64,000 nt of DNA from Escherichia phage ESCO5. This document shows positions 16,902 to 58,214 of this stretch, piece after piece. Each line of letters starts with the position of its first letter. Positions within the stretch are counted from its first letter, which is position 1. The notes under the pieces were generated by a model. The model was not told the DNA's origin. It saw only the letters and a list, made by a program, of their open reading frames with translations, and made no database searches. A program made the translations under genes and the position numbers. Where the stretch lies: sequence record NC_047776.2. One strand, 5' to 3'.

Positions 16902-17132
16902 GTGTTAAATAAAATCGAAGAAGGTTGTATGGCATTTTTGGTAGATAACCCGTTTCCCTTTATGGTTAAGGTCCATGTAGGAGAGTATTTAGGTTATGAC
17001 GAATGGGATTGTAGTATCAATAGTGAAATGCACCACTACCAACCAACAATACTTAAGACGGATCAAATGGCGCGTATTACAGTAGAGGATGAATTGATCA
17101 TTGAGTTATACGAGAGAGCACTACACAAGTAA
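16902..17132 (+). CDS. Hypothetical protein
   Basis: ORF; GTG start at 16902 after TAGGAGG, alternative ATG at 16929. Confidence 0.4.
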   Translation: MLNKIEEGCMAFLVDNPFPFMVKVHVGEYLGYDEWDCSINSEMHHYQPTILKTDQMARITVEDELIIELYERALHK

Positions 17133-17173
17133 GCTAGAACCCACCTAAATCGAACAGAGACGCTCTAAAATAG

Positions 17174-17205
17174 AAAAGGCACCCACTTGGGTGCCTTTGT
17201 TTTAT
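17174..17205. terminator. Bidirectional terminator at the convergence point of the plus and minus blocks
   Basis: GGCACCC-ACTT-GGGTGCC hairpin flanked by an A-run upstream and a T-run downstream. Confidence 0.65.
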
Positions 17206-17474
17206 TCTTCGTTAGATTGCGTTTCAGACGCGTTAAATTCGGTTTCAGTGCAACTTGCTAGGTAACTTATGTTTCGCATCACTACAACTACAGGTGTTTG
17301 AAGTTTATCTTCTAGCCCAGCAGCCACTTGAGCCAAGGCATTATCAATATTTGATTTCCTAACACCTGTTCCATGCCCTGTTGCCAAGTAAAGATTACCT
17401 TCCCCTTTTTGTGTAGCATTAGCAAAGTAGTAAACGTAATGTGCAAGGTAGTAATCACGGATTTCTTCAGTCAT
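17202..17474 (-). CDS. Hypothetical protein
   Basis: ORF with SD AGGAG upstream. Confidence 0.45.
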   Translation of the reverse strand: MTEEIRDYYLAHYVYYFANATQKGEGNLYLATGHGTGVRKSNIDNALAQVAAGLEDKLQTPVVVVMRNISYLASCTETEFNASETQSNEE

Positions 17475-17485
17475 TTTGTTCTCCT

Positions 17486-17508
17486 AATAAGAAAGGGGCC
17501 GAAGCCCC
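17486..17508 (-). terminator. GGGGC-UUCG-GCCCC hairpin (terminator or processing site)
   Basis: Identical hairpin recurs at 29551-29564 and 36043-36056. Confidence 0.5.
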
Positions 17509-17517
17509 TTGAGTGGT

Positions 17518-18318
17518 TTATTTGTTTAAATGGTCTTCAACCATTTTGATAAAGCCTTCATCACTGAAGACTGTCCCTGCTTTCTCTCGGTAGACAAGCA
17601 CTCCACGTTCTTCGTAGAGAGTTTGTTCTACAAAATTCAAACCTGGGTTAACTACAACCATCTTAACCCCAATATTCAGGGCAGGGAAAAGTTCCCAATT
17701 GAAGTTGATAACTTGATTAGAGCAGCCCACAACGATAACCATGTCTTGAGCAGTTAGCGTGTCGAGGATTTGGTACATGTCGGTGTAGAACGGAGCATTT
17801 TCACCAAAAAACACCACGTTAGGTTTCACGTACTTGTAATCATCTACATCAATAGCAGCATAACCTACATCTTTGATGATTCGATTGTCTACAATCACTT
17901 CAGGCAGGAAGCCGTGAACATGCAGAACATCTTCATGAACAACACCTGCTTGTTCCAGAAGATCATCTACGTTTGTTGTGATGTTGATAACACGTTCACA
18001 ACCGTACTCTTGGAACCATTCCGCGATCTGGTAATGCGCAGCGTTAGGAGACACGCTATCCATCTCTACGCGACGTTTATTGTAGAAGTCGTGAGTTTTA
18101 CGGTAGAGGTTGTATCCCTCTGCATCTAATCCGCCAACAGCCCCAGGAACACACTGTTCTTGTTGGTATCCAGCACGGAAGTTGAAAATGTCGCATACTT
18201 CAGAGAGGTCATATTCGTCCCACAAAGCTTTACCGCTTGTGGTATCGGTGCGGAAAGTACGTACACCACTATCGGCGCTTAGACCAGCGCCGCTGATCAC
18301 TATTAATCGTCTTGGCAT
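17518..18318 (-). CDS. Sir2-family NAD-dependent deacetylase / ADP-ribosyltransferase-like protein
   Basis: GAGLSADSGVRTFR, TTNVDDL, HG and FFGE motifs typical of sirtuins. Confidence 0.6.
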   Translation of the reverse strand: MPRRLIVISGAGLSADSGVRTFRTDTTSGKALWDEYDLSEVCDIFNFRAGYQQEQCVPGAVGGLDAEGYNLYRKTHDFYNKRRVEMDSVSPNAAHYQIAEWFQEYGCERVINITTNVDDLLEQAGVVHEDVLHVHGFLPEVIVDNRIIKDVGYAAIDVDDYKYVKPNVVFFGENAPFYTDMYQILDTLTAQDMVIVVGCSNQVINFNWELFPALNIGVKMVVVNPGLNFVEQTLYEERGVLVYREKAGTVFSDEGFIKMVEDHLNK

Positions 18319-18803
18319 TCTTCCTCCTCATAATCATCATAATCTTCGTCATCCAAATCGTACACCTCGTCTTGAGAATAACTCACTTCAAAGTAAATAT
18401 CAAACTCTGCAAACAAACGTAGAATGTTGGACATGCTGTAATAGTTATCATAAGCTTCCTCTGCTTCATAGTAGAGGCGTAGCAAACGTTCAGCTTCTTC
18501 ATCTTCTACCCATTTATGATCGACATAGACAGAAGCAGCGTAGGTATTGTAGGCTTGTTCCCGACTATCGACAAGATTTCGGCTCAACAGTTCAGGGAAG
18601 TCCTTATAATTTACATTCAGTCTTCCGCATAACCACAAAGCAATATCATGCCAATCTGCATCCATACCACTAAAGCAACTTGCTTCTTCTCCAAAAGAAG
18701 CTTCTCCTAAATCGCCACTAATACGAACAACATTAGATGAATTATAGCCACACGTTTCACAATCAGAGTAACTATTATGCACATTGATATTTACTTGAAA
18801 CAT
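18303..18803 (-). CDS. Hypothetical protein with strongly acidic C-terminus
   Basis: ORF overlapping the Sir2-like gene by 16 nt; C-terminal D/E-rich tail. Confidence 0.45.
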   Translation of the reverse strand: MFQVNINVHNSYSDCETCGYNSSNVVRISGDLGEASFGEEASCFSGMDADWHDIALWLCGRLNVNYKDFPELLSRNLVDSREQAYNTYAASVYVDHKWVEDEEAERLLRLYYEAEEAYDNYYSMSNILRLFAEFDIYFEVSYSQDEVYDLDDEDYDDYEEEECQDD

Positions 18804-18861
18804 ATTCCCTCCTATAAAAGAAAAGCCCCCTGAAACAGGAGGCTTTGTTCAGATGTTGGCA

Positions 18862-19479
18862 CTATACCAGACTTTGTAGGTATTTGTCAAGGGCTTCTTG
18901 ATCACCTTGACAAACATAGCAACGGAAGTCTTGAGCAGAAGGTTCTTTGTCCTCGTCCCAATCCCAATAAACAGTACCTTTATAACGTGAGCCTGGGAAC
19001 TCGAAATATGCTGTATGAGTAATATGATGTGGGCCACCCCAAAACTGTGTAAAAGTAAATTGAGGATACGCTGCTTTAACTGTATTCTCAAACCAAGTTT
19101 TACGATCTAATGCTTCGTTTATAAAATAAGCATGGCGTTCCATTTCATCCCAGTCTTTCCAAACGCATTTTTCATCCAGAGAAAAAACAAAATCTTCACT
19201 GTTGAATTCATCTGTATCTTCCAAAATATCATAATCATGTGCACTAGGTATCCACCATCCAGCTTCTAATAGTGCTTTCACGGGTACAAAACCTTTTTCA
19301 GCATATTGATCAAATTCTTTTACTCTACGTACAGTGCAGTATTCATCTTCACCACCAATGTCCAGTAGACAAGCACCTTTGCGTCTTGCTGCAAGACCAT
19401 GTGTATCAAAAACTACAACACTACCTTCACCATCATTACGATCTACTTGATAAGCAACTACTGGTTTTGAATTTGACAT
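18862..19479 (-). CDS. Hypothetical protein
   Basis: 205-aa ORF. Confidence 0.5.
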   Translation of the reverse strand: MSNSKPVVAYQVDRNDGEGSVVVFDTHGLAARRKGACLLDIGGEDEYCTVRRVKEFDQYAEKGFVPVKALLEAGWWIPSAHDYDILEDTDEFNSEDFVFSLDEKCVWKDWDEMERHAYFINEALDRKTWFENTVKAAYPQFTFTQFWGGPHHITHTAYFEFPGSRYKGTVYWDWDEDKEPSAQDFRCYVCQGDQEALDKYLQSLV

Positions 19480-20162
19480 TATTTCTCCTTATCTAGAAGA
19501 TTGTTAGACAAAAACACTGCACGAGCAAAACCACGTGCGGTTAGTGATCTAAGTTGTTTTGTTTTTGCACTAGCTCCGCCTAAGCTTTTCCAACCCCAGA
19601 AGCAGCCTATATGATCTACTGGTTTCTTCACTGGTTGAACAAAGCCATTCCCGTGCCAAATACAAGTTTTCTTTGTATACCCATCACGGGTAGGCATTTT
19701 AGGATGAAAGCTTCCTTCTTCTTCAAACAAATACCCACCATACTCATAAGGATCAAAGTAAAAATCGGGTTTACGCCATAAGGTTGAAAGTTTACCTACT
19801 GGGTTCTCAATCATCCAAGGAACATTGTATTTGTTACCCAAAGCTTCCACTACACGAATATTAGCTAAAGCCTCATCTAATTCCTCTGTGCTGCGTTCGT
19901 GTTTGCTACCACTACCTGCTAACATAGTGCAAGGTGGAAATCCAAAAATAATATCGGGTTTAGGTATTCCATGATCTTCAGGGTTGAATGTAGAATCTAT
20001 CCAAGCATTCACATAGGTTATGTTTGGGTGCTCCATCCTAACCTCGTATTTACCGTGGTCCCCTTCATCAGCGTTTACACAAAAACACTTGTGACCTGCT
20101 TCGGCATAACGTAACACCATGATCCCAGATCCGTCAAACATAGACAAAACTGTTTTACTCAT
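19479..20162 (-). CDS. Cytosine-C5 methyltransferase-like protein (short)
   Basis: FDGSG (motif I-like), FPPCT (PC motif IV-like) and ENPVG (ENV-like); start taken at ATG 20162 after GGAGG. Confidence 0.45.
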   Translation of the reverse strand: MSKTVLSMFDGSGIMVLRYAEAGHKCFCVNADEGDHGKYEVRMEHPNITYVNAWIDSTFNPEDHGIPKPDIIFGFPPCTMLAGSGSKHERSTEELDEALANIRVVEALGNKYNVPWMIENPVGKLSTLWRKPDFYFDPYEYGGYLFEEEGSFHPKMPTRDGYTKKTCIWHGNGFVQPVKKPVDHIGCFWGWKSLGGASAKTKQLRSLTARGFARAVFLSNNLLDKEK

Positions 20163-20568
20163 TACCCCTCCATTCAAGACAAGCCATAACTTTACGCCAA
20201 TCACTTTCTGTAAGAAAAATCTCGTTTGCTTTCTTCCACAAATCTAGATCGTGAAGGGTTGGAATACGATATGTTAGTTCACAGAATCTATGTTCTTCTT
20301 CTGTAATATAACCAAAATGCAAAGCCACATCGTGAAACCAACACCAACCATGCATCTCTCGAACAACATGATCATGTTGAGACATTATTTTATGCCGTAA
20401 ACCTAACCAACAAGGAACAGATACTTTAGTAGTCTTTAATCTGTGATCAACAGTATTAGAGTATTCAATAATAGCTGTCAATTTCAATCGTGCTTTTTCT
20501 AAATCCTCATGCGTCACTTTGAAATAACTTTCTGAAAGATATCCACACATATTAATAACCTCCTTCAA
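20155..20568 (-). CDS. Hypothetical protein
   Basis: 137-aa ORF. Confidence 0.45.
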   Translation of the reverse strand: MKEVINMCGYLSESYFKVTHEDLEKARLKLTAIIEYSNTVDHRLKTTKVSVPCWLGLRHKIMSQHDHVVREMHGWCWFHDVALHFGYITEEEHRFCELTYRIPTLHDLDLWKKANEIFLTESDWRKVMACLEWRGNE

Positions 20569-21493
20569 AAGGCTTAACTACATGTTGATTAGCTTTAAAA
20601 CGTTCAACATAGTCGTTTTCACCCATGTTTTCATATAGCTTAATAACAACATAAAAGTTTTCCCAAGCATATTCCCTAAACCAACCACTAGTGATGGATG
20701 TGCAGACTTTAGATAAAGCCATTATAAAACTTTGCTTAGGGGTTGGACCTCCGATCTCTCCACCGAAAGGAATTTGTGAACGTTCCAAAGCCAAAACACA
20801 CGCTTCTTCATAAACACCTAACAGGCGCACATGTTTTGGTTGAGCAAAAAACTTTTCTTTGCTGGTCATAACTTCACTTCCATCTTTCATATAAGATTTA
20901 TATGCTGGAGCATCCATTACTGCGATTGCTTCATGAATAGAGTCATGATCATAAACATACGGAACCTCATCACCTTTAAAGAAATCTTTACTTCTCACGT
21001 TTAAGTTTGGATGAGAGTAAGTGTATGTTTCTTTCTCACGCAACTCATAAACACTCTTAAAATTTTCTGGGATCTTTGCGCCTAGTGATCGCATGAAATG
21101 AATATCTTTCATAGTTTTAAAGAAGTGAGGACTATCCTTTTTAAAACGATGACTCATTTTAAGAAGGTAGAGCACATCTAAAGGAGCAACAACGTGTCCA
21201 GCGTAAGTTCGACGAATATCATCAGAGTCTTCACAATAACTAATCAAAGCTTCTGTGCTATCTCCTTGAGAAGCAATATCGTATTCCAAATGTGCACCAG
21301 CTATCATTTTGACATGGCCCTTGTTCCCTTTACGCTCTACAAGTTCAACAAACTCATCTTGAGAGAACATTTTTGATAATTTTTCCCATTCTTGTTCTGT
21401 ACAGAGGTAATCTAAATCTACACAAGGGCGATACAAGTCTTTTCCCATATCCATAGCATGAATTTGTAATGCACGGCTACCGATTAACACCAT
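20552..21493 (-). CDS. Hypothetical protein (313 aa)
   Basis: ORF; weak GS...DLD pattern only, no confident family assignment. Confidence 0.5.
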   Translation of the reverse strand: MVLIGSRALQIHAMDMGKDLYRPCVDLDYLCTEQEWEKLSKMFSQDEFVELVERKGNKGHVKMIAGAHLEYDIASQGDSTEALISYCEDSDDIRRTYAGHVVAPLDVLYLLKMSHRFKKDSPHFFKTMKDIHFMRSLGAKIPENFKSVYELREKETYTYSHPNLNVRSKDFFKGDEVPYVYDHDSIHEAIAVMDAPAYKSYMKDGSEVMTSKEKFFAQPKHVRLLGVYEEACVLALERSQIPFGGEIGGPTPKQSFIMALSKVCTSITSGWFREYAWENFYVVIKLYENMGENDYVERFKANQHVVKPFEGGY

Positions 21494-30232: not shown

Positions 30233-30493
30233 TTACTCCGCAATTTGAGCCATGAGATCACGCAGTTCGGTAAAACCGCCTACGTATGTTACCTCCCCGT
30301 TCACTTCAGACAGAATTTGTGGAAATGTGCGTGGAGGAACTCCGGTAAGATCAACAACTGTTTTAGTCATTGATTCTAAATCATAGTCTTGGCCAAGACT
30401 TAAATATTCAAACTGTTTATTGCGCATAGTCAATAGTTGTTTTGACATTTCACAAAATTGACAGTTAGGTTTACCAAAAATTACAAATTCCAT
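30233..30493 (-). CDS. Glutaredoxin (T4 NrdC-like)
   Basis: CQFC active site and C-terminal TFPQI...GGFTELRDL resembling T4 glutaredoxin. Confidence 0.75.
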   Translation of the reverse strand: MEFVIFGKPNCQFCEMSKQLLTMRNKQFEYLSLGQDYDLESMTKTVVDLTGVPPRTFPQILSEVNGEVTYVGGFTELRDLMAQIAE

Positions 30494-31335
30494 TACCTCT
30501 CCTTATTAAGTAATACTGCTAAAGACTGTTCAATACCTTTATTTAAATCTGATTTTGTAAGATAGTGACTGGTTACTAGTTGTGACTTCACCGGACGTGC
30601 TGCTGGAGCATTATAGGTTGAAGCTGATACCGCCGATATCTTAACAGGTTCTGGCATCTGTGTCAAGATCTTTTCCGCAAACTCCGCCCAAGAAATAAGA
30701 TGGCTTCCTGCAAAATGGTAAGTCTTAACAGACCTTGACCAACCTGTTTTTAATACTTCAAAAATAGCTTCTGCTAAATCTGGAGCATATGTTGGACAAG
30801 AGAACTGATCAGCAACAATAATAAAATCACGTTGTCCATCATTATAGCGAGACAACATAGTTTTTAGAAAGTTATTTCCAAATTCGCTATATACCGAGGC
30901 TGTTCGAATAATATATGCATTTGGGTTAACTCCTCGCACCATTTTTTCACCAAGTTTTTTCGTATACCCATAATTGTTTATTGGGTTAGGTGCAGTATCT
31001 TCAAAAATAGGATGAGAATAATTAAAAATATAGTCTGTAGAAATATGCACAAAATCAATTTTAAGTTTGCTGCACACTGCCGCAATATTTGCAGGTCCAT
31101 ATGCATTAACAGCCAAAGCAGTAGCAAAATCATGTTCTGCTTTATCTACAGCCGTATAAGCGGCGCAATTAATAACACCATCTACATAATCTTCAACAAT
31201 AGCGTTTCGCACAGCTTCAAAATTTGTAATATCTACACGTTCTTTAGGATAAATTAAAGATACATTTGAAGGAACCACTTTACGTAAAGCTTGTCCCAGT
31301 TGTCCATTACCACCCAATACCAGATATGTTAGCAT
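30493..31335 (-). CDS. rmlD: dTDP-4-dehydrorhamnose reductase
   Basis: NCAAYTAVDKAE, STDYIF, YGYTK and DQF.CPTYA motifs characteristic of RmlD. Confidence 0.85.
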   Translation of the reverse strand: MLTYLVLGGNGQLGQALRKVVPSNVSLIYPKERVDITNFEAVRNAIVEDYVDGVINCAAYTAVDKAEHDFATALAVNAYGPANIAAVCSKLKIDFVHISTDYIFNYSHPIFEDTAPNPINNYGYTKKLGEKMVRGVNPNAYIIRTASVYSEFGNNFLKTMLSRYNDGQRDFIIVADQFSCPTYAPDLAEAIFEVLKTGWSRSVKTYHFAGSHLISWAEFAEKILTQMPEPVKISAVSASTYNAPAARPVKSQLVTSHYLTKSDLNKGIEQSLAVLLNKER

Positions 31336-31895
31336 ACACCCTCGCTACGTAACTGTTGAAAAGATTTAGCCATTGCATCTTTTGTTGATAAAATAGGTTT
31401 AAAACCTTCGTCAAAAATCATATCGAAGCCCCAATCGATACCTATGTCAGGATCATCCCAACGTAAACTTTGTTCACTAGAAGGGTCGTATGGAGTTGTG
31501 CATTTGTATTCAAAGATCGCATCCATACTCAAAACTATAAAACCATGTGCCAAACCAGGAGGAAGCCAAAACTGCGTATGGTGTCGTGCACGAAGAACAA
31601 CACCGTCCCAAGCACCGTAAGTTGGACTATCTTTACGTAAATCTACAGCGAAATCCAATACTTCTCCACTTACACAACGAACAAGCTTACCTTGCGGATT
31701 ATTTGTTTGAAAGTGCATTCCTCGCAAAACACCGAAGTTTGATTTAGACATATTATCTTGAACGAAAGTTTGCTTACCAATGATATCTTCGTATTTTTGT
31801 TCATTGTATGTTTCTAAAAAGAAACCACGGTCGTCTTTATAAACGTCTGGTTTGATAATTACCGCACCTTCAATTTTTGTTTTTTCTACTTTCAT
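31329..31895 (-). CDS. rmlC: dTDP-4-dehydrorhamnose 3,5-epimerase
   Basis: DDRGFF, FVQDN.S and GVLRGMHFQ motifs of RmlC; start at ATG 31895 (4-nt overlap with rmlA stop) rather than the longer track ORF. Confidence 0.85.
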
Positions 31896-32770
31896 TTTCC
31901 CTCCGCTAATTTGAGTAGGTATTGCCCGTACTCTGTTTTCTTCAGTGAGTTTCCATGGTAGACCAAAGTCTCTAAAGAAATCCACCCTTTTTTGAAAGCA
32001 ATTTCTTCCAGGCACGCAATCTTCAATCCTTGACAGTTCTCAATAGTCTGCACGAATTGACCAGCTTCCATCAGACTGGCGTGTGTTCCTGTGTCAAGCC
32101 AAGTAAATCCTCGTCCGAGAACTTCCACTTGTAACTTCCTGTCTTCGAGGTAGCTGCGATTGATATCAGTGATCTCCAGTTCTCCACGCGCGGAAGGGGT
32201 TACTTCTAATGCACGTTGAATAACAGAGTTATCATAGAAATACAAACCTGTGACAGCATAATCTGATTTAGGATTTTCAGGTTTCTCTTCAATAGAAATA
32301 ACTTGACGATTACTCCCAAATTCAACCACACCGAATCGTTCAGGATCTTTCACCAAACACCCGAAGATACAAGCTCCGCCCCAAACATCTACCATCTCAC
32401 TAGCGTCAATCAGTAGTTTACCAAAGCTTTGTCCGAAGAATAGGTTGTCACCTAAAATAAGAGCAACAGAGTCTTCTCCGATAAAATCTTTACCGATGAT
32501 GAAAGCGTCCGCAAGACCTCGTGGCTTGGATTGGATTGCGTAAGTGAGTTTTATCCCAAACATAGACCCATCTCCAAGAAGATACTCAAAGTCTTCCTGA
32601 TCGCCTGGTGTGGTGATGATTAAGATATCCTTAATGTCAGCCAACATCAATACCGATAAAGGGTAGTAGATCATGGGTTTGTCATACACAGGGAGCAATT
32701 GCTTGCTCACACTGCGTGTTACCGGATGAAGGCGGGTTCCACTTCCTCCCGCCAAAATAATACCTTTCAT
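31892..32770 (-). CDS. rmlA: Glucose-1-phosphate thymidylyltransferase
   Basis: [19 protein letters not shown]-terminus and overall RmlA pattern. Confidence 0.9.
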
Positions 32771-32778
32771 AACCCTCC

Positions 32779-33771
32779 TTAAATCTTCTCACTCCACCAT
32801 TGAGGGTTGTTTAAGTACCATTCAATCGTTGAGTAGAGATCTTGTTCAAATGTAGAGTTTGCACTCCAACCCAGTTCAGACTCTATTTTAGAAGGATTGA
32901 TTTCATAACGCAAGTCATGTCCTTTACGATCTTCAACAAAAGTTATCAAGTTGGAAGAAGGGTAGGTTCCTGCTTCTGGATGTACAGCATCTATGTAGTC
33001 ACAAACCATATAGATGATCTCCATATTGGTTTTGGGATTACGTGTTCCAACATTATACGTTTGACCTGGTTCTCCACCTGTTGCCACTTGAAGAATAGCT
33101 CGCGCATGATCCTCAACAAAAAGCCAGTCTCGCACCTGATCGCCTTTACCATACACCGGAATCTCTTTATTCGTCAAGATACTTGTGATGATTTTTGGGA
33201 TCAGCTTTTCTGGATGTTGATAAGGTCCAAAGTTATTGGAGCAGTTGGTTATCACAACAGGTAAACCGTAGGTACGGTACCAAGCTTTCACAAGATGGTC
33301 AGATGCTGCCTTAGACGCACTGTACGGGCTTGAAGGGGCATAAGCTGTCTCTTCGGTAAAGGGAACGCCAGAGTCTGCCATATCGCCGTACACTTCGTCT
33401 GTGGAGACATGTACGAACATCTTAAGTTTATTTTTTGGGAGGAGCCTTGCAGCTTCCAATAAATTGTATGTACCAATAATATTGGAGTCGATGAAAACTC
33501 GTGGATTCTTGATAGAATTATCCACATGACTCTCTGCCGCTAAGTGAATGATGAAATCGGGATTGCACTCTACTACTAAACTTTTGACCTGGGTTTCGTT
33601 TGCCAAATCTGTTATGCTCAGTTTAACGTGAGTGATATCGCCTACATTCTCAATATCTGCTGCATAGCCCATCTTATCAACGACAAAAACTTCGTTATTG
33701 GGATCTTGACAAAGAGAGCGCACCACGGCACTCCCAATAAAACCAAGACCACCTGTTACCAGATAGCGCAT
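32779..33771 (-). CDS. rmlB: dTDP-glucose 4,6-dehydratase
   Basis: [11 protein letters not shown]-binding motif, YSASKA catalytic motif, size 330 aa. Confidence 0.9.
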
Positions 33772-49150: not shown

Positions 49151-49555
49151 TTATTGAAGTTTAAGTGAACCACGAAGACGTTTCTCTTGCTGATCACGGA
49201 TATATTGTGGAACCTCGTGAATTGAATCATTACCGTGCCTATTTTCAACAATTAAAGAGATAACTTGATAACCAAACTCTTCAGCAAGAGCTAGATAAGG
49301 TTTAAGTTCTTTCTCTGTGGTTGAAGTATTAGAAACAATAATCTTGTTAAGATTAGATGCCATAGCATCACGAACAATACCCTGACACCATGCGTGTGCT
49401 TTACCTACATTTTCTGGCTTCCAATCGTAAACACCACTCTCTGTGTAATGATATTGATCTGCCTCACAGATAGGCCAATAACCTTCAGAAATAATTTCTG
49501 CTACTGTAGATTTACCAGCACCTGAAACGCCACGTAAAATGATAAGTTGTTTCAT
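49151..49555 (-). CDS. Polynucleotide 5'-kinase-like P-loop kinase (T4 Pnk kinase-domain type, kinase only)
   Basis: LRGVSGAGKSTVA Walker A and overall resemblance to the T4 Pnkp N-terminal kinase domain; 134 aa, no phosphatase domain. Confidence 0.6.
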   Translation of the reverse strand: MKQLIILRGVSGAGKSTVAEIISEGYWPICEADQYHYTESGVYDWKPENVGKAHAWCQGIVRDAMASNLNKIIVSNTSTTEKELKPYLALAEEFGYQVISLIVENRHGNDSIHEVPQYIRDQQEKRLRGSLKLQ

Positions 49556-50488
49556 TTATCCTCCAAAAAAGTTTTCGATTTTTTCACGTCGCTCTTGCTG
49601 ATTTAAAGCAGCCCATTGAGTCTTCGTAAAATTATTTCGAATCCATTCTAACAAAGCGTAATATTCTTCGTCAACAATTTGTTTGGCATTTTTCGGATTA
49701 TCCCAAATCAGATCCCACTTTTTATCTCCACCGCGCATAAGAAACTTCTTAGTAAGATAGTGTGGTGATTTAATTTTTAAAAGTAAGTTGAACGGATAGT
49801 TTGTTTCACGAACTACAAACCCTTCGTGTTTACAATGTTTAGACATTTCAACAACATCTGAAAACTTAACCATTGGATAAACTTCAGGACGCTTAAATTT
49901 GGTGACAGAAGCAATTCCATCAAGAGCACCTTCAGGTAACATAAAACTTGTCCCATCAGGATTTTGAATTCTGGCACCAATTAAGTATGCACCTGGTTCT
50001 TCTTCGACAATATGCGGATCAGAAGGATCACAGATTTCAAAAAGGAAAGTTGCTTTTGCACTCTCTGTCCATTTGATGAAATGTTCTATGTCATCACACT
50101 CTGAAACAATACGATTCTTTGCAATACTTGCAAAATCTGATTCAAGGCTTCCTGTTGTCGATACAATAAGTTGACCTTTATATACACCTACAGAGGCCAT
50201 AAAACCATTTACTTTACGAACCACATCTACAAGTTCATCCAATGGTAGATCTGTGCCATTCTCAAAACGATTAAAAATCTTAGTGAAAGGCCAAATAACA
50301 ACATTGTCATCAGCATCAACAACGATTCCGCGACATTCTAGAAGACGAGAATCAATGCTCCATAAGTTATCCCAGAAAACTTTGTTCTTATACTTAAGAA
50401 CAGATAGACCAGAATACTCTCCTTCTTTATATGTTTTCTTATGAACTAAACCTTTTTCAACCAAATCGTCGCAATTAAATTTAGTCAC
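49556..50488 (-). CDS. RNA ligase, T4 Rnl1-like
   Basis: LLECRGIVV matches T4 Rnl1 LECRGIMF; motif I variant RKVNG; SLESDFAS region. Confidence 0.6.
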   Translation of the reverse strand: MTKFNCDDLVEKGLVHKKTYKEGEYSGLSVLKYKNKVFWDNLWSIDSRLLECRGIVVDADDNVVIWPFTKIFNRFENGTDLPLDELVDVVRKVNGFMASVGVYKGQLIVSTTGSLESDFASIAKNRIVSECDDIEHFIKWTESAKATFLFEICDPSDPHIVEEEPGAYLIGARIQNPDGTSFMLPEGALDGIASVTKFKRPEVYPMVKFSDVVEMSKHCKHEGFVVRETNYPFNLLLKIKSPHYLTKKFLMRGGDKKWDLIWDNPKNAKQIVDEEYYALLEWIRNNFTKTQWAALNQQERREKIENFFGG

Positions 50489-50489
50489 A

Positions 50490-51041
50490 TTACTCTCCTT
50501 TGATTATTTTGTGATGGTCTACAGTCACGATATCTCGTTTACTCATCATAGAAATTATCTCATCAAAATGCAAGATTTTTCCGTGTGCATCCCAACCCAC
50601 ATCTAACATTTTACCATAAGCTTCATCAGGGAAAGATCCGTGGGAATGCCCGTGTAGCATGATTGATCCACGACCTTGTTTATTCCAGGAGGCCATAGGG
50701 TAATGACTTAAGACGAAGAACAGCTTCTGATATTTCACTTCGTCATAATACACCACTTCACCATACTCTGCAAGCACTTCTCGGTGTTTGCTGTAGTCAT
50801 GGTTCCCAACACAGTAGGTGATATCTCCTTGGAGACGAGAAGCAATTTTACGGGTATCTTCTTCAGTTCCGAAACAGAAGTCGCCCAAATGCCACATCTT
50901 AACACCAGGAGTAGTAGCACATTTGTTCCATGCTTCGATCAAGGCTTCTGTCATGTGGTCCATATCTTCCCACGGACGATATTCAGGAGCAAACTCTCGA
51001 ATACGTTTATGCATAAAATGCAAATCGCTTGTAATAAACAT
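50490..51041 (-). CDS. Metallophosphoesterase (calcineurin-like)
   Basis: SDLHF, GDF and GNHD metal-binding motifs. Confidence 0.65.
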   Translation of the reverse strand: MFITSDLHFMHKRIREFAPEYRPWEDMDHMTEALIEAWNKCATTPGVKMWHLGDFCFGTEEDTRKIASRLQGDITYCVGNHDYSKHREVLAEYGEVVYYDEVKYQKLFFVLSHYPMASWNKQGRGSIMLHGHSHGSFPDEAYGKMLDVGWDAHGKILHFDEIISMMSKRDIVTVDHHKIIKGE

Positions 51042-51397
51042 TAGTATAATCCCTCGCTAAATAATTCATGGTCGTGACCATTACGCTCATGGTCGATCTG
51101 GTCAGCATTTTCCGCGATGATGTAAGCATCCGCACGACTCCACCAATTGTAATACTGATCGATAAAGCCTTGATTATCTGGTGTGCACAAAGTTTTGTTG
51201 ATTACACCTGCTTCTTTCAACACGTTTAACTGTGCATATAGTACAGGATTTGCATGTCGAACACAAGGAATAATTAACTCTTCACCATTATTCAAAATAT
51301 ACTTATTTGCAGCACAGACGATAACACGTTGCGCATAATGACCCTCACCCATCCAGGTAAGAGGTTGGTAACAAATATTGTTTTCAATACCACTCAT
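51041..51397 (-). CDS. Hypothetical protein
   Basis: 118-aa ORF with SD GAGGA. Confidence 0.45.
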   Translation of the reverse strand: MSGIENNICYQPLTWMGEGHYAQRVIVCAANKYILNNGEELIIPCVRHANPVLYAQLNVLKEAGVINKTLCTPDNQGFIDQYYNWWSRADAYIIAENADQIDHERNGHDHELFSEGLY

Positions 51398-51403
51398 TGT
51401 TTC

Positions 51404-51547
51404 CTAATCCTCCTCTCTTAAGTTATCCTCGAAAAAACTAGTGTCTGGAAGTAAAAGATCATTACTTGTGTCGGGCCAATCCTCTTCTTCTCGGTAGATA
51501 AAGTAACCTTCGTCCTCTTCTTGTTCCGACCAAACCGAATGATGCAT
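51404..51547 (-). CDS. Small acidic protein (47 aa)
   Basis: ORF below the track cutoff with SD GGAGAG. Confidence 0.35.
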   Translation of the reverse strand: MHHSVWSEQEEDEGYFIYREEEDWPDTSNDLLLPDTSFFEDNLREED

Positions 51548-51556
51548 GTTCTCTCC

Positions 51557-51901
51557 TTAGTAGTGCACACGAATCATTTTAATACCATAACGCAGCATAG
51601 ATTCTTTTGCAAGCATGAATTTATCCCCAGCGGCGGGATTAGAAGTATGCACGAAAATGGTGGGTGAACCAAAGCAAGGTTTACCAAACGCCAGAAGTTC
51701 TTCCAGGTACAGGAAAACATCATACCCATCTTGGTCTGACTCCATACCTAAATCATTGTCAAAAGACCACTCGGTTACTCTTCGATACAGTTTAGCAGGA
51801 TCGTTGAGAAAGGCCATAGCTTCTTGTGACGTTTTAAACCAAATTGCATCCTCCTGTCCATAGTCGGCTGGGTTCCGCATATCATCTATCCAAACTTTCA
51901 T
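51557..51901 (-). CDS. Hypothetical protein
   Basis: 114-aa ORF. Confidence 0.45.
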   Translation of the reverse strand: MKVWIDDMRNPADYGQEDAIWFKTSQEAMAFLNDPAKLYRRVTEWSFDNDLGMESDQDGYDVFLYLEELLAFGKPCFGSPTIFVHTSNPAAGDKFMLAKESMLRYGIKMIRVHY

Positions 51902-56192: not shown

Positions 56193-56267
56193 GGCCCTGT
56201 AGCTCAATGGGAGAGCTGTCGGCTCATAACCGATAGGTAGCTGGATCGAAACCAGCCAGGGCCACCA
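56193..56267 (+). tRNA. tRNA with CAU anticodon (Met or lysidine-modified Ile2 type)
   Basis: Hand-folded cloverleaf: acceptor GGCCCTG/CAGGGCC, anticodon loop CTCATAA, encoded CCA; resembles E. coli tRNA-Ile2. Confidence 0.7.
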
Positions 56268-56269
56268 AC

Positions 56270-56344
56270 GTCTTTATGGTGTAATGGATAGCACAGGAGT
56301 CTTCTAAACTCTTAGTCAAGGTTCGATTCCTTGTAAAGACACCA
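56270..56344 (+). tRNA. tRNA-Arg (anticodon TCT)
   Basis: Acceptor GTCTTTA/TAAAGAC, anticodon loop CTTCTAA, T-loop TTCGATT, encoded CCA. Confidence 0.7.
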
Positions 56345-56540
56345 GAACATTTTAACATGAATTAGCTCAAGTGATTTGAACCCACTACTGATCATGGTGG
56401 CAGAGAATGAGGCAAGTATGTCAGACATTATAAACAAAGGCCACGGTTATATTAGAAGACATAAATGCTCGAAGAGCACCGTTCGTGGAGAACGGGGGTT
56501 GGTGGAGTCACCATTCATGGTAAAATGTTTTAAAAAACTA

Positions 56541-56570
56541 TTGACAACAAACATTATTTTATGTTAGATT
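56541..56570 (+). promoter_or_regulatory. Sigma70-like promoter with extended -10 (TTGACA, 18 nt spacer, TGnTAGATT)
   Basis: Immediately upstream of tRNA-Ser at 56579. Confidence 0.45.
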
Positions 56571-56578
56571 ATAAGTAT

Positions 56579-56669
56579 GGAAGGGCAAATCGACGTGGCG
56601 ACGAAAACGGTCTTGAAAACCGCCGAGCTTGAAAGAGCCTTGGGAGTTCGACTCTCCCTCCTTCCGCCA
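56579..56669 (+). tRNA. tRNA-Ser (anticodon TGA), type II
   Basis: Anticodon arm CGGTCTTGAAAACCG matches E. coli tRNA-Ser(UGA); long variable arm; discriminator G; encoded CCA. Confidence 0.7.
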
Positions 56670-56674
56670 GATTA

Positions 56675-56760
56675 GGTAGATTGGTGAAATGGTAGCCACG
56701 ACAGTTTGCTAAACTGTAGTCGGAAACGGCGTGTAGGTTCGAGTCCTACATCTACCGCCA
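56675..56760 (+). tRNA. tRNA-Ser (anticodon GCT), type II
   Basis: Acceptor GGTAGAT/ATCTACC, anticodon stem-loop ACAGT-TTGCTAA-ACTGT, long variable arm, discriminator G. Confidence 0.7.
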
Positions 56761-56890
56761 AGTTCTTTTTAATGTAGCTTACTTTAGCAGAGTAAATCTT
56801 CGGCAAGTGGCGGTAACCACTTTACCGATACCTCATAGTTAGTGGTGCGAACACTGGCTATTTTAAAAAGAATTTAAATATTAGTATTTA

Positions 56891-56978
56891 GGTGAGTTAA
56901 TTCCGTAGGGGTAGCGGGGCAGACTGTAAATCTGTTATCATTGCGATTCGGGTGGTTCGACTCCATCACTCACCACCA
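56891..56978 (+). tRNA. tRNA-Tyr (anticodon GTA), type II
   Basis: Anticodon arm GCAGACTGTAAATCTG matches E. coli tRNA-Tyr; long variable arm; discriminator A. Confidence 0.7.
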
Positions 56979-56984
56979 AATTAA

Positions 56985-57070
56985 GATGAGTTGGCTGAAT
57001 GGTTTAAGCGGCGGACTGTTAATCCGTGTTCGAAAGAACAATATAGGTTCGAATCCTATACTCATCGCCA
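56985..57070 (+). tRNA. Type-II-shaped tRNA with GTT (Asn) anticodon and discriminator G
   Basis: Acceptor GATGAGT/ACTCATC, 3-bp D-stem, anticodon arm GCGGACTGTTAATCCGT as in E. coli tRNA-Asn, extra GTTC-GAAA-GAAC hairpin in the variable region, T-arm ATAGG-TTCGAAT-CCTAT. Confidence 0.55.
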
Positions 57071-57077
57071 GAATTAT

Positions 57078-57152
57078 GGACTTGTAGAGTTAAGGTAAAC
57101 CCCCAGTCGCCAATAGGCTTCTGGAATTGCAGGTATCGAATCCTGCCGAGTC
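57078..57152 (+). pseudogene. tRNA-like remnant with aberrant anticodon domain
   Basis: Acceptor-like GGACTTG/CGAGTCC and T-arm-like GCAGG-TATCGAAT-CCTGC (8-nt loop); no 7-nt anticodon loop could be folded. Confidence 0.3.
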
Positions 57153-57160
57153 CCAGCATT

Positions 57161-57235
57161 GCTCCTATAGTATAATGGCTATTACAACGGTTTTGTAATC
57201 CGTGGATCTCTGTTCGATTCAGTGTGGGAGCACCA
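57161..57235 (+). tRNA. tRNA-Thr (anticodon TGT)
   Basis: Acceptor GCTCCTA/TGGGAGC, anticodon loop TTTGTAA, T-loop TTCGATT, encoded CCA. Confidence 0.6.
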
Positions 57236-57508
57236 ACACAACATTAAGAGCACTGTGATTGATCGTCGTATCCTGTGCACAAGGTCTGCTCGAAAGACAG
57301 TGTTCTTAGTATTGTGTTGATCACAAAAAGAGTCACCCGAAACTTGACCGGAGTAGGGTTGGATGGGGCAAAATGAGAAGCGGCTCTCCCATCGACAGCA
57401 ACGAAGAATAATATTTGACTTTTGTTTTGTATTATTTTAAGTTAGCTTACCGAACGTAGGGCTAGTCACCCAACGGGATACTCGTCACTGTCCCACTCAA
57501 TAAAACTA

Positions 57509-57538
57509 TTGACAACCAATAGTAAAATGTAGTATAGT
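57509..57538 (+). promoter_or_regulatory. Sigma70-like promoter (TTGACA, 18 nt spacer, TATAGT)
   Basis: Consensus -35 and near-consensus -10 about 12 nt upstream of tRNA-Gly. Confidence 0.55.
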
Positions 57539-57549
57539 AAAGATGTAGG

Positions 57550-57623
57550 GCGTTCTTGGTGTAGCGGTAGCATTCCGTCCTTCCAAGTCGGCGGCACGAG
57601 TTCGATCCTCGTAGAACGCTCCA
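57550..57623 (+). tRNA. tRNA-Gly (anticodon TCC)
   Basis: Acceptor GCGTTCT/AGAACGC, anticodon loop CTTCCAA, T-arm ACGAG-TTCGATC-CTCGT, discriminator T, encoded CCA. Confidence 0.7.
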
Positions 57624-57721
57624 AATTATTTAATAAAGGGTTGCCAGAAAACTTTCTCTTTTACTCATGGTTTTCTCCTTCTCTCACACTTCTTCTGGTT
57701 GCCCTTCATTAAATGATTTAT

Positions 57722-57797
57722 TGGTTTGTAGTGTAGTCCGGTAGCACACGACACTTTGACTGTCGTAGGTTTGGTTCAAATCCAGACAGACCAGCCA
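57722..57797 (+). tRNA. tRNA-Gln (anticodon TTG)
   Basis: U1-A72 start and discriminator G as in E. coli tRNA-Gln; anticodon stem-loop CGACA-CTTTGAC-TGTCG; encoded CCA. Confidence 0.7.
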
Positions 57798-57890
57798 TAT
57801 AACAAAGGTGAGTCACTACCTTAAGTGTGAAGTTAAAAACGAGGAGCCGCCGAACACTTTCTTTTGCGGTGTACCTTTAGAATGTTATCA

Positions 57891-57975
57891 CGGGACGTAG
57901 CACAGCTTGGTAGTGCGCTCGCTTTGGGAGCGAGAGGTCGAGTGTTCGAATCACTCCGTCCCGACCAATTAAATG
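57891..57975 (+). tRNA. tRNA-Pro (anticodon TGG)
   Basis: Acceptor CGGGACG/CGTCCCG, D-stem GCAC/GTGC, anticodon stem-loop CTCGC-TTTGGGA-GCGAG, T-loop TTCGAAT, encoded CCA. Confidence 0.7.
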
Positions 57976-57981
57976 TTTCGT

Positions 57982-58057
57982 AGTTCAATGGTAGAACCCA
58001 CGACTGATAATCGTGAGACACAAGTTCGATTCTTGTCGAAACAACCAGTTTCCCGTT
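57982..58057 (+). tRNA. tRNA-Ile (anticodon GAT)
   Basis: Acceptor TGTTTCG/CGAAACA, D-stem GTTC/GAAC, anticodon stem-loop CACGA-CTGATAA-TCGTG, encoded CCA. Confidence 0.65.
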
Positions 58058-58059
58058 AG

Positions 58060-58129
58060 ACTTACAGGATAAGAGATCCACAATTTATTGTGACGCTGGT
58101 TCGAATCCAGCACGGGATACATAATAGCG
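58060..58129 (+). pseudogene. tRNA-like remnant with perfect T-arm but no foldable anticodon loop
   Basis: T-arm GCTGG-TTCGAAT-CCAGC and acceptor-like TTCCCGT/ACGGGAT; central hairpin CACAA-TTTA-TTGTG has a 4-nt loop; no CCA. Confidence 0.3.
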
Positions 58130-58135
58130 GGATAG

Positions 58136-58214
58136 AGGAGTCTGGTCGTCCTCGCCAGTTTCATATGCTGGAGATCATTGGTTCAAATCCAATTCCCGCC
58201 TCCAAATATCGCTT
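58136..58214 (+). tRNA. tRNA with CAT anticodon (Met type) and mismatched 1:72 pair
   Basis: Anticodon stem-loop CCAGT-TTCATAT-GCTGG, T-arm ATTGG-TTCAAAT-CCAAT, encoded CCA; A1 opposite C72. Confidence 0.6.

Follow-up and report, generated by a model that had tools for sequence, protein, structure and literature searches.

A stretch of 64,000 nucleotides (nt) from Escherichia phage ESCO5 (NC_047776.2), termed here the window, encodes a Sir2-like protein of 266 residues (positions 17518-18318, minus strand, ATG start), the gene for which overlaps that of an acidic-tailed protein of 166 residues (18303-18803, minus strand, ATG start). There is very little doubt that the 266-residue protein is a zinc-less phage sirtuin. 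Its gene is an already known, previously annotated member of a large clade of phage sirtuins, which is derived from class III (CobB/SIRT5-like) sirtuins and in which the Cys4 zinc module has been lost and the Gln of the canonical TQNID motif has been replaced. To judge from its sequence, the protein keeps all of the residues needed for the binding of nicotinamide adenine dinucleotide (NAD+) and for nicotinamide cleavage (namely, GAGxS, FR, N116, D118 and H135); and, because these NAD-binding and catalytic residues are kept, an NAD-consuming activity during infection is plausible. Tentatively ranked first among the possible functions is an ADP-ribosyl transfer linked to RNA repair, with protein deacylation close behind. 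The sirtuin and the 166-residue protein are most probably not an obligate pair.

Sequence, fold and distribution of the sirtuin

The 266-residue protein is identical to UPW40168.1, which is annotated as a 'putative Sir2-like protein' in the record of Escherichia phage vB_EcoM_REC (OM386667.1; Caudoviricetes, Stephanstirmvirinae, Phapecoctavirus), where the upstream neighbour is annotated as hypothetical. The region from 17000 to 19600 is 100% identical to this phage (the record coordinates of which, less 2473, give window coordinates) and 84-94% identical to phAPEC8 and many relatives. A first-pass annotation of the window had described a phage-encoded Sir2-like open reading frame (ORF) that has the NAD-binding motifs and lacks an obvious zinc-binding Cys cluster, and this description holds. 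The protein matches the Pfam SIR2 family (PF02146) with an E-value of 1.7e-20 (74.2 bits against a cut-off of 24) and phrog_2162, 'Sir2 (NAD-dependent deacetylase)', with an E-value of 4e-99 over residues 2-266. Its motifs are GAGLS (residues 10-14), FR (22-23), TTNVDD (114-119), HVHG (133-136), GCS (198-200) and VVN (222-224). The protein has only four cysteines (C42, C56, C107 and C199); none occurs within the segment spanning residues 136-170, which aligns with the Cys-bearing zinc module of CobB, and in an alignment of clade members the zinc-module cysteines are missing throughout the phage clade.

Residues that are invariant within the clade were computed from 40 members. These include G10, A11, G12, S14, F22, R23, N116, D118, H135, G198, S200 and N224, among which the NAD-motif residues and the catalytic His align with the same residues of CobB; further invariants are Y79, R82, R83, T114, T115, V117, G136, the run K165-P-N-V, F170, F171 and E173. 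The Tyr-x-x-Arg pair of class III sirtuins is kept in the form of Y79 and R82, both of which are invariant in the close clade (the sequence FYNKRR being aligned to FYNARR of CobB), and which correspond to the acyl-carboxylate recognition pair of CobB (Y92/R95) and SIRT5 (Y102/R105); in jumbo-phage members R82 is replaced by Leu and R83 is retained. The Gln of TQNID is Thr in this protein (TTNVD) and Ala or Ser in distant or jumbo-phage members. The peptide-binding loop HVYP of CobB aligns with QVIN, which is the start of a clade-invariant QVINFNW.

The predicted structure agrees with this classification. An AlphaFold2 model based on 40 homologues has a predicted local distance difference test score (pLDDT) of 92.6 and a predicted template modelling (pTM) score of 0.88, and a Foldseek search of the PDB with this model gave 281 matches at E ≤ 0.001, of which the top 50 listed are all sirtuins. 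The closest solved fold is that of E. coli CobB (1s5p; Foldseek E = 6e-18, template modelling scores of 0.74/0.86, 26% identity), followed by Sir2Af1 and SIRT5, all three being class III sirtuins; phmmer ranks the solved structures in the same way (CobB, E = 7e-15). The phage protein has in common with CobB and SIRT5 the Rossmann NAD site, the catalytic His, the FGE loop and the Tyr-x-x-Arg pair, but differs from them in that it lacks the zinc-binding cysteines, has TTNVD in place of TQNID and has a replaced Val-Tyr-Pro loop; in addition, some phage-clade members harbor an extra insertion at residues 48-70. Together with the other members of phrog_2162 it shares both the loss of the Cys4 module and the replacement of the same canonical Gln. 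Both this ORF and that of the 166-residue protein are real genes rather than chance ORFs, given their conservation in over 100 phage genomes and their confidently predicted folds (a pLDDT of 88.4 for the 166-residue protein).

The sirtuin is a single domain of 266 residues: no SLOG, HerA or pAgo domain and no large C-terminal sensor domain is either fused to it or encoded by neighbouring genes. Nor was a Macro domain found among the seven ORFs scanned with Pfam (that is, the sirtuin and six neighbours), so that it differs from the Macrodomain-linked, ADP-ribosylating SirTM sirtuins in having no Macro-domain operon partner; the viral sirtuin clade is described as not Macro-coupled by Iyer et al. 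(PMC9503650). Among Pfam families only SIR2 and SIR2_2 were matched, with no match to the KptA/Tpt1 family, and the fold is that of a sirtuin.

Of 50,697 phage records searched with tblastn, 981 contain the clade, and in 910 of these the match spans 80% or more of the protein. Its carriers include T5-like phages (Demerecviridae), rV5-like phages (Vequintavirinae), Stephanstirmvirinae, large Vibrio phages and several jumbo phages, with one copy in a genome; full-length orthologues at 34-93% identity occur in T5, rV5, phAPEC8, PVP-SE1, KVP40/phiGrn1 and Serratia phage BF, and the annotation of the phAPEC8 gene already notes its similarity to the rV5 and PVP-SE1 genes. That phage Sir2/CobB proteins are zinc-less was reported by Skliros et al. 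in 2016 (PMC5107563), and a 'distinct clade of viral sirtuins' was described by Iyer, Burroughs, Anantharaman and Aravind in 2022 (PMC9503650). The clade also occurs in about 25 unannotated 'Campylobacter phage' records of 134-146 kb (MG065689.1, MG065645.1, MG065682.1 and others), which harbor Sir2, phrog_9509 (the family of the 166-residue protein) and cREC genes that hardly differ from their counterparts in phi92-like and rV5-like coliphages; the hosts named in these records look doubtful.

What the sirtuin may do during infection

The RNA-repair-linked, NAD-consuming ADP-ribosyl transfer, which is proposed by analogy and still only tentatively, is ranked first because orthologues of the sirtuin adjoin RNA-end-repair or ADP-ribose-processing genes in T5-like, rV5-like and jumbo phages. 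The rV5 orthologue (50% identical) comes directly after genes for a T4 Rnl1-type RNA ligase and a cREC_REC protein and before one for a pyrophosphohydrolase, with an AAA_33 kinase and a calcineurin-like phosphoesterase alongside; Raoultella phage Ro1 has the same arrangement. Sir2 of the T5-like phage L6jm is overlapped by the gene for a phosphatase of the HAD_SAK_2 family ('HAD domain in Swiss Army Knife RNA repair proteins'), and within the jumbo phages BF (Serratia) and PBECO4 a Nudix gene follows the orthologue. The BF gene is also near NadV and near a small gene recorded as 'RNA ligase', which is a 2H protein (PMC9503650). Among 59 Sir2 loci from IMG/VR, HAD_SAK2 occurs within 6 kb of Sir2 in 27, and the cluster of Rnl1, kinase, phosphoesterase and MazG genes in 11-14. 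Moreover, arrays of tRNA genes are common in the phage lineages that carry this Sir2 clade (T5-like, rV5-like, phi92-like, KVP40-like and some jumbo phages), which would fit a role in the maintenance of tRNA or other RNA. A KptA-like RNA-repair role for viral sirtuins has been proposed before (PMC9503650).

From this perspective, the sirtuin would use NAD+ during infection to transfer ADP-ribose onto an anionic acceptor, and would do so within a phage toolkit for RNA end-repair and ADP-ribose processing. More specifically, it might remove a 2'-phosphate from RNA in the manner of Tpt1/KptA, leaving an ADP-ribose by-product to be cleared by Nudix, MazG, HAD or cREC enzymes, the genes for which adjoin the orthologue in other phages; and the Tyr-x-x-Arg pair, which in SIRT5 and CobB binds a carboxylate, could hold the phosphate. 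The chemistry of the two enzyme types runs in parallel: in sirtuins and in Tpt1 alike an oxyanion attacks C1' of NAD+, after which a 1',2'-cyclic species forms via the ribose 2'-OH (which in sirtuins is activated by the His). Hence the likeness, which is hypothetical and one of function only, lies in the use of NAD+, in an anionic oxygen nucleophile and in a cyclic ADP-ribose product, as well as in the fact that the neighbourhoods of relatives hold a ligase, a kinase, and cyclic-phosphate-processing and ADP-ribose-clearing enzymes. The two are not of the same family, the phage protein having a Sir2 Rossmann fold and KptA an ADP-ribosyltransferase (ART) fold; and, to our knowledge, a Tpt1/KptA-like activity has never been shown for any sirtuin.

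Several observations weigh against a link to RNA repair. Whereas in sister phages the orthologue lies inside the RNA end-repair cluster, in ESCO5 the two are about 31 kb apart: the immediate neighbours of Sir2 are phrog_9509, phrog_8514, a DNA methylase and phrog_15991, with no RNA-repair or ADP-ribose genes adjoining. The Stephanstirmvirinae gene thus differs from others of its clade in residing outside of RNA-repair or Nudix neighbourhoods, at the end of another operon and next to phrog_9509. The link to Rnl1 and cREC is not strict, because T5-like phages, which are the most frequent Sir2 carriers, mostly lack them (15 Salmonella phage records each, as against 289 for Sir2) and because many Rnl1-bearing phages (e.g., Pseudomonas and Streptomyces phages) are without Sir2; strict co-occurrence at the genome level was looked for and found to be only partial. 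The ESCO5 protein is strongly acidic (isoelectric point 4.6, net charge -18), sampled clade members have isoelectric points of 4.6-5.9, and no conserved basic residues were seen other than the standard sirtuin ones, which is unexpected for an RNA-binding enzyme. The argument is also partly circular, inasmuch as cREC and HAD_SAK are themselves only predicted RNA-repair families and were predicted by the same research group, and the three types of neighbourhood amount to only three or four independent lineages. Finally, a search of the accessible literature found no experimental characterization of any phage sirtuin.

The window does contain a complete predicted RNA end-repair cluster of its own (49151-51901, minus strand), which, based on the record annotation and Pfam, consists of genes for an AAA_33 kinase (49151-49555), a T4 Rnl1-type RNA ligase (49556-50488), a calcineurin-like phosphoesterase (50490-51041) and a cREC_REC protein (51557-51901), all on the minus strand; the record mis-annotates the last of these as 'RNA ligase and tail attachment protein'. 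Within the same cluster is an ORF of 118 residues that is annotated as an 'anti-restriction nuclease' and that has no Pfam match. Elsewhere in the window (56193-58204, plus strand) are ten annotated tRNA genes (Met, Arg, Ser, Asn, Thr, Gly, Gln, Pro, Ile and Met).

A close rival to the RNA-repair interpretation, though in itself somewhat unlikely, is that the sirtuin acts as an NAD-dependent protein lysine deacylase (a deacetylase, desuccinylase or demalonylase) on host or phage proteins during infection, for example by reactivating acetyl-CoA synthetase or by removing acyl groups from basic proteins that bind nucleic acids. Annotations of the gene usually name this function, and CobB and SIRT5, its nearest characterized relatives both by sequence and by fold, are deacylases of this type, whose catalytic His, FGE loop and succinyl-recognizing Tyr-x-x-Arg pair are invariant in the close phage clade. 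CobB is acidic as well (isoelectric point 5.4), so that charge is no objection, and the adjoining Nudix, MazG or HAD enzymes could equally well clear O-acyl-ADP-ribose. A deacetylase activating host acetyl-CoA synthetase is what Skliros et al. proposed for the Vibrio phage homologue (PMC5107563). Yet the protein falls far below all of the curated NCBIfam CobB/deacylase cut-offs (99.5 versus 243 bits for NF001753 and 81.9 versus 320 bits for NF040867; all seven of the matching models are sub-cut-off). It is missing the zinc module, which in sirtuins shapes the peptide cleft; moreover, the Val-Tyr-Pro loop of CobB has become an invariant V-I-N-F-N-W, and the canonical Gln has become Thr, Ala or Ser across the phage clade. 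Deacylation also leaves unexplained the recurrent siting of the gene beside Rnl1, cREC and HAD_SAK.

Considerably less probable than either is a free NADase, or an enzyme acting on NAD-derived immune signals, which would either deplete host NAD+ (for shut-off or superinfection exclusion) or serve as a counter-defence by destroying ADP-ribose-based messengers. Sir2 domains do act as NADases in the Thoeris, DSR, SIR2-HerA and short pAgo systems (reviewed in PMC9503650 and PMC13464706), and the NAD salvage gene NadV adjoins Sir2 in Serratia phage BF, with 2 of the 59 IMG/VR loci likewise having NadV at most 6 kb from Sir2. The first-pass annotation had likewise implied a kinship to the Sir2 effectors of bacterial defence, but this part of it is not upheld. 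A defence-type Sir2 was considered and rejected: PADLOC gives a single local match of 17.7 bits (PDC-S65), SIR2_2 (PF13289) scores 13.4 bits against a cut-off of 24.5, and both sequence and fold group the protein with the deacylase-type class III sirtuins. ThsA, DSR1/DSR2, SIR2-HerA and SPARSA share with it the Sir2 superfamily and (as predicted here) the consumption of NAD, but the phage protein is a stand-alone protein of a lytic phage, with no fused or adjacent sensor domain. Furthermore, the record annotates no NAD salvage genes over its positions 13,473-156,300, and a wholesale depletion of NAD+ would hurt a lytic phage, T5-like phages in particular, which rely on an NAD-dependent DNA ligase.

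The sirtuin gene and its acidic-tailed neighbour

The first-pass annotation had also pointed to a 16-nt overlap between the Sir2-like ORF and an ORF with a long Asp/Glu tail, and had taken the latter for a coupled partner. The overlap (18303-18318, minus strand, a strand that the annotation had not given) and the tail are as described; the partnership is not borne out by comparison with other phages. The phrog_9509 protein occurs in 131 phage records as against 981 for the Sir2 clade, and adjacency of the two genes was seen only in Stephanstirmvirinae-type genomes (loci L001, L003, L007, L010, L019, L020 and L023), to which the 166-residue family is mainly confined. Six phrog_9509 loci from T4-like phages, jumbo phages and other contigs have no Sir2 in their fetched flanks of about 1 to 10 kb, and, conversely, six Sir2 loci from other lineages have no phrog_9509 within 5 kb; a phrog_9509 gene occurs within 6 kb of Sir2 in 5 of the 59 IMG/VR loci. 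Two related contigs (L026 and L069) retain the upstream neighbour followed by Sir2 but are missing the phrog_9509 gene; the ORFs of 171 residues (L026) and 92 residues (L069) were considered as diverged phrog_9509 members and were rejected, the hhalign probabilities being below 1%. A search for related loci with a closer phrog_9509 alignment gave only 2 IMG/VR loci. Nor does the 40-member clade alignment contain any phrog_9509-specific signature that separates those Sir2 proteins with this neighbour from those without it.

In two phages the pair is split, an HNH endonuclease gene lying between phrog_9509 and Sir2 in ECML-183-2 (L020:1975-2562) and in Serratia phage KKP_3264 (L019:1771-2511). 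These two belong to different genera of Stephanstirmvirinae, and in each the HNH-type (homing) endonuclease is inserted exactly between the two genes; the whole HNH/Sir2 stretch is unannotated in the ECML-183-2 record.

The adjacency is best explained by synteny at the subfamily level combined with routine gene overlap, the 16-nt overlap being normal for the tight gene packing of this minus-strand operon: 36 of 74 same-strand neighbour pairs overlap, the overlap reaching 10 nt or more in 13 pairs and 16 nt or more in 8. As far as sequence comparison can tell, the 166-residue protein would not be a required partner of Sir2, and any pairing would be restricted to at most one lineage. Neither PMC5107563 nor PMC9503650 mentions the Stephanstirmvirinae arrangement of Sir2 with phrog_9509.

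It is nevertheless conceivable, though quite doubtful, that the two proteins form a functional two-component module in which the acidic, three-Cys protein regulates, inhibits or targets the sirtuin in the manner of a toxin-antitoxin system or an adaptor, and which would consume NAD+ or ADP-ribosylate host proteins during takeover. The phrog_9509 gene does reside directly upstream of Sir2 in Phapecoctavirus and phi92-like phages, the pair is flanked by terminator-like hairpins with a near-consensus promoter-like site ahead of it, and a small acidic protein encoded first with an overlapping enzyme second is the order typical of type II toxin-antitoxin operons. Likewise suggestive are the three invariant cysteines of the 166-residue protein, which are one short of a zinc site, given that the sirtuin has lost its own zinc site; and phrog_9509 homologues occur in the jumbo phages RaK2 and GAP32, the relatives PBECO4 and Muenster of which carry Sir2 elsewhere in the genome (GAP32 is itself listed among Sir2 carriers in PMC5107563). 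Set against this are the absence of phrog_9509 both from about 850 of the 981 Sir2-bearing records and from contigs that otherwise keep the synteny, the viability of phages in which HNH insertions split the pair, the six phrog_9509 loci without Sir2 in their flanks, the ordinary size of the overlap, and the lack of a neighbour-specific signature; in addition, the sirtuin and the 166-residue protein each bear a large negative charge (net -18 and -32, respectively), so that a simple charge-based interaction is unlikely. A narrower version, to which we assign a similarly small likelihood, is that the Stephanstirmvirinae sirtuin has acquired a dedicated subunit: the 166-residue protein, with its incomplete three-Cys site and nucleic-acid-like Asp/Glu/Tyr tail, would associate with the sirtuin and gate or direct its consumption of NAD, for instance as a pseudo-substrate inhibitor whose release is triggered by cues of infection or as an adaptor that links the enzyme to a nucleic-acid-binding protein of the host, and the two genes would constitute a self-contained module set off by terminators. 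As a general rule this is unlikely, although an interaction specific to one lineage may exist.

The 166-residue protein itself matches only phrog_9509, a PHROGs family to which no function is assigned; neither it nor 15 family members have a match in Pfam, NCBIfam or PADLOC, and a Foldseek search of BFVD with its model returned uncharacterized phage proteins only. The family is small: a word-indexed homology search found 9 close relatives, and an exhaustive profile search of 1.8 billion representative proteins added 16 clusters, for 17 in all. In the AlphaFold2 model residues 1-145 form a compact alpha/beta core, whereas the tail (residues 146-166, of Asp, Glu and Tyr) is predicted to be disordered, with a pLDDT of about 54; the C-terminus reads EVYDLDDEDYDDYEEEECQDD and has a net charge of about -14. 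The invariant residues of the family are C15 and C18 (a CxxCG knuckle at the turn of a beta-hairpin), G38, A41 and C43, exactly three of them being cysteines, with a fourth ligand not conserved. The acidic tail, disordered and rich in Tyr, is a trait of the family and is present as well in members that do not overlap Sir2. The terminal CQDD, on the other hand, is found only where the overlap exists; it is a by-product of the overlap, because the end differs both in ECML-183-2, where the HNH gene intervenes and the protein ends ...EEEEGE, and in the phi92-like phage Eryne, where the homologue ends ...WDDDY and an 11-nt gap precedes Sir2.

Outside of Stephanstirmvirinae the phrog_9509 family has neighbours of other kinds. 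A DUF5856 (ferritin-like) gene comes directly before the homologue in L008 and L009 (T4-like or jumbo phages) and about 1 kb downstream of it in L015, and a thymidine kinase gene is at most 3 kb away in L009 and L015. About 1 kb downstream of the distant homologue in L009 (from the 358-kb jumbo phage MT939486) is a gene with a NADAR domain (L009:5445-5951), a family linked to NAD and ADP-ribose; this is the only NAD-related neighbour seen for phrog_9509 members outside of Stephanstirmvirinae, and it may be a coincidence.

In Stephanstirmvirinae the two genes are probably co-transcribed, because they are flanked by terminator-like hairpins and preceded by a promoter-like site. The latter (18861-18890, minus strand), a predicted, near-consensus sigma-70 site consisting of TTGACA, an 18-nt spacer and TG-n-TATAGT (11 of 12 matches), lies inside the 3' end of the next gene upstream and, so far as a consensus match indicates, points at the pair. 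Between that upstream gene and the 166-residue gene is a terminator-like hairpin of 11 pairs followed by a T-run (18822-18846, minus strand), and a second such hairpin (GGGGC-TTCG-GCCCC, then a T-run; 17493-17510, minus strand) begins 8 nt past the Sir2 stop codon. Eryne has a similar hairpin ahead of its 166-residue homologue and an extended -10 element (TGGTATAAT) at the matching relative position. In ESCO5 (18822-18890 in the window) the promoter-like site is followed immediately by the strong terminator-like hairpin and then by the ribosome-binding site of the 166-residue gene, and in Eryne (L010:3395-3440) the extended -10 element, the hairpin and the gene come in the same order. It is unusual for a promoter to lead directly into a terminator hairpin, and this one may be an attenuator or a 5' stabilizer.

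At the junction of the two genes the minus strand reads ...GAT TAT GAG GAG GAA GAA TGC CAA GAC GAT TAA, with the Sir2 ATG embedded in GAA TGC. A strong Shine-Dalgarno sequence for Sir2, GAGGAGG (18323-18329, minus strand, as read from the sequence), is located 4 nt upstream of the ATG at 18318 and consists of Glu codons of the upstream protein; hence, codons of the acidic tail appear to double as the ribosome-binding site of the sirtuin gene.

Other genes of the window and the significance of the sirtuin

Several further features of the window bear on the setting of these two genes or on the phage as a whole. A perfect hairpin with a 10-bp stem (17175-17198), which scores as a terminator on both strands, is located where the plus-strand early block meets the minus-strand operon and corresponds to an annotated terminator of phAPEC8. 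The six-gene block upstream of the pair is headed by a gene (20552-21493, minus strand) for a protein of 313 residues with DUF7277 and DUF7275 domains (E = 5e-75), the position of which is kept in the related contig L007. Further along the window (30493-33771, minus strand), four consecutive genes are annotated as belonging to the dTDP-L-rhamnose pathway (the equivalents of RmlA, RmlB, RmlC and RmlD) and adjoin genes for glutaredoxin and lysozyme; it is unusual for a lytic coliphage to carry an entire pathway for a nucleotide sugar.

The locus as found matters little in itself, its gene being annotated in the phage record and in hundreds of relatives, and the acidic neighbour is not where the answer to the sirtuin's function should be sought. 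About 2% of sequenced phage genomes, however, carry a zinc-less sirtuin of this kind, including relatives of the model phages T5 and rV5 and several therapy candidates. If the sirtuin is a deacylase, it would represent a rare case of a phage rewriting the acyl-proteome of its host. If, instead, it removes RNA 2'-phosphates in an NAD+-dependent manner, it would define both a new class of sirtuin substrate and a new step in the repair by phages of tRNAs that have been cut by host defences.

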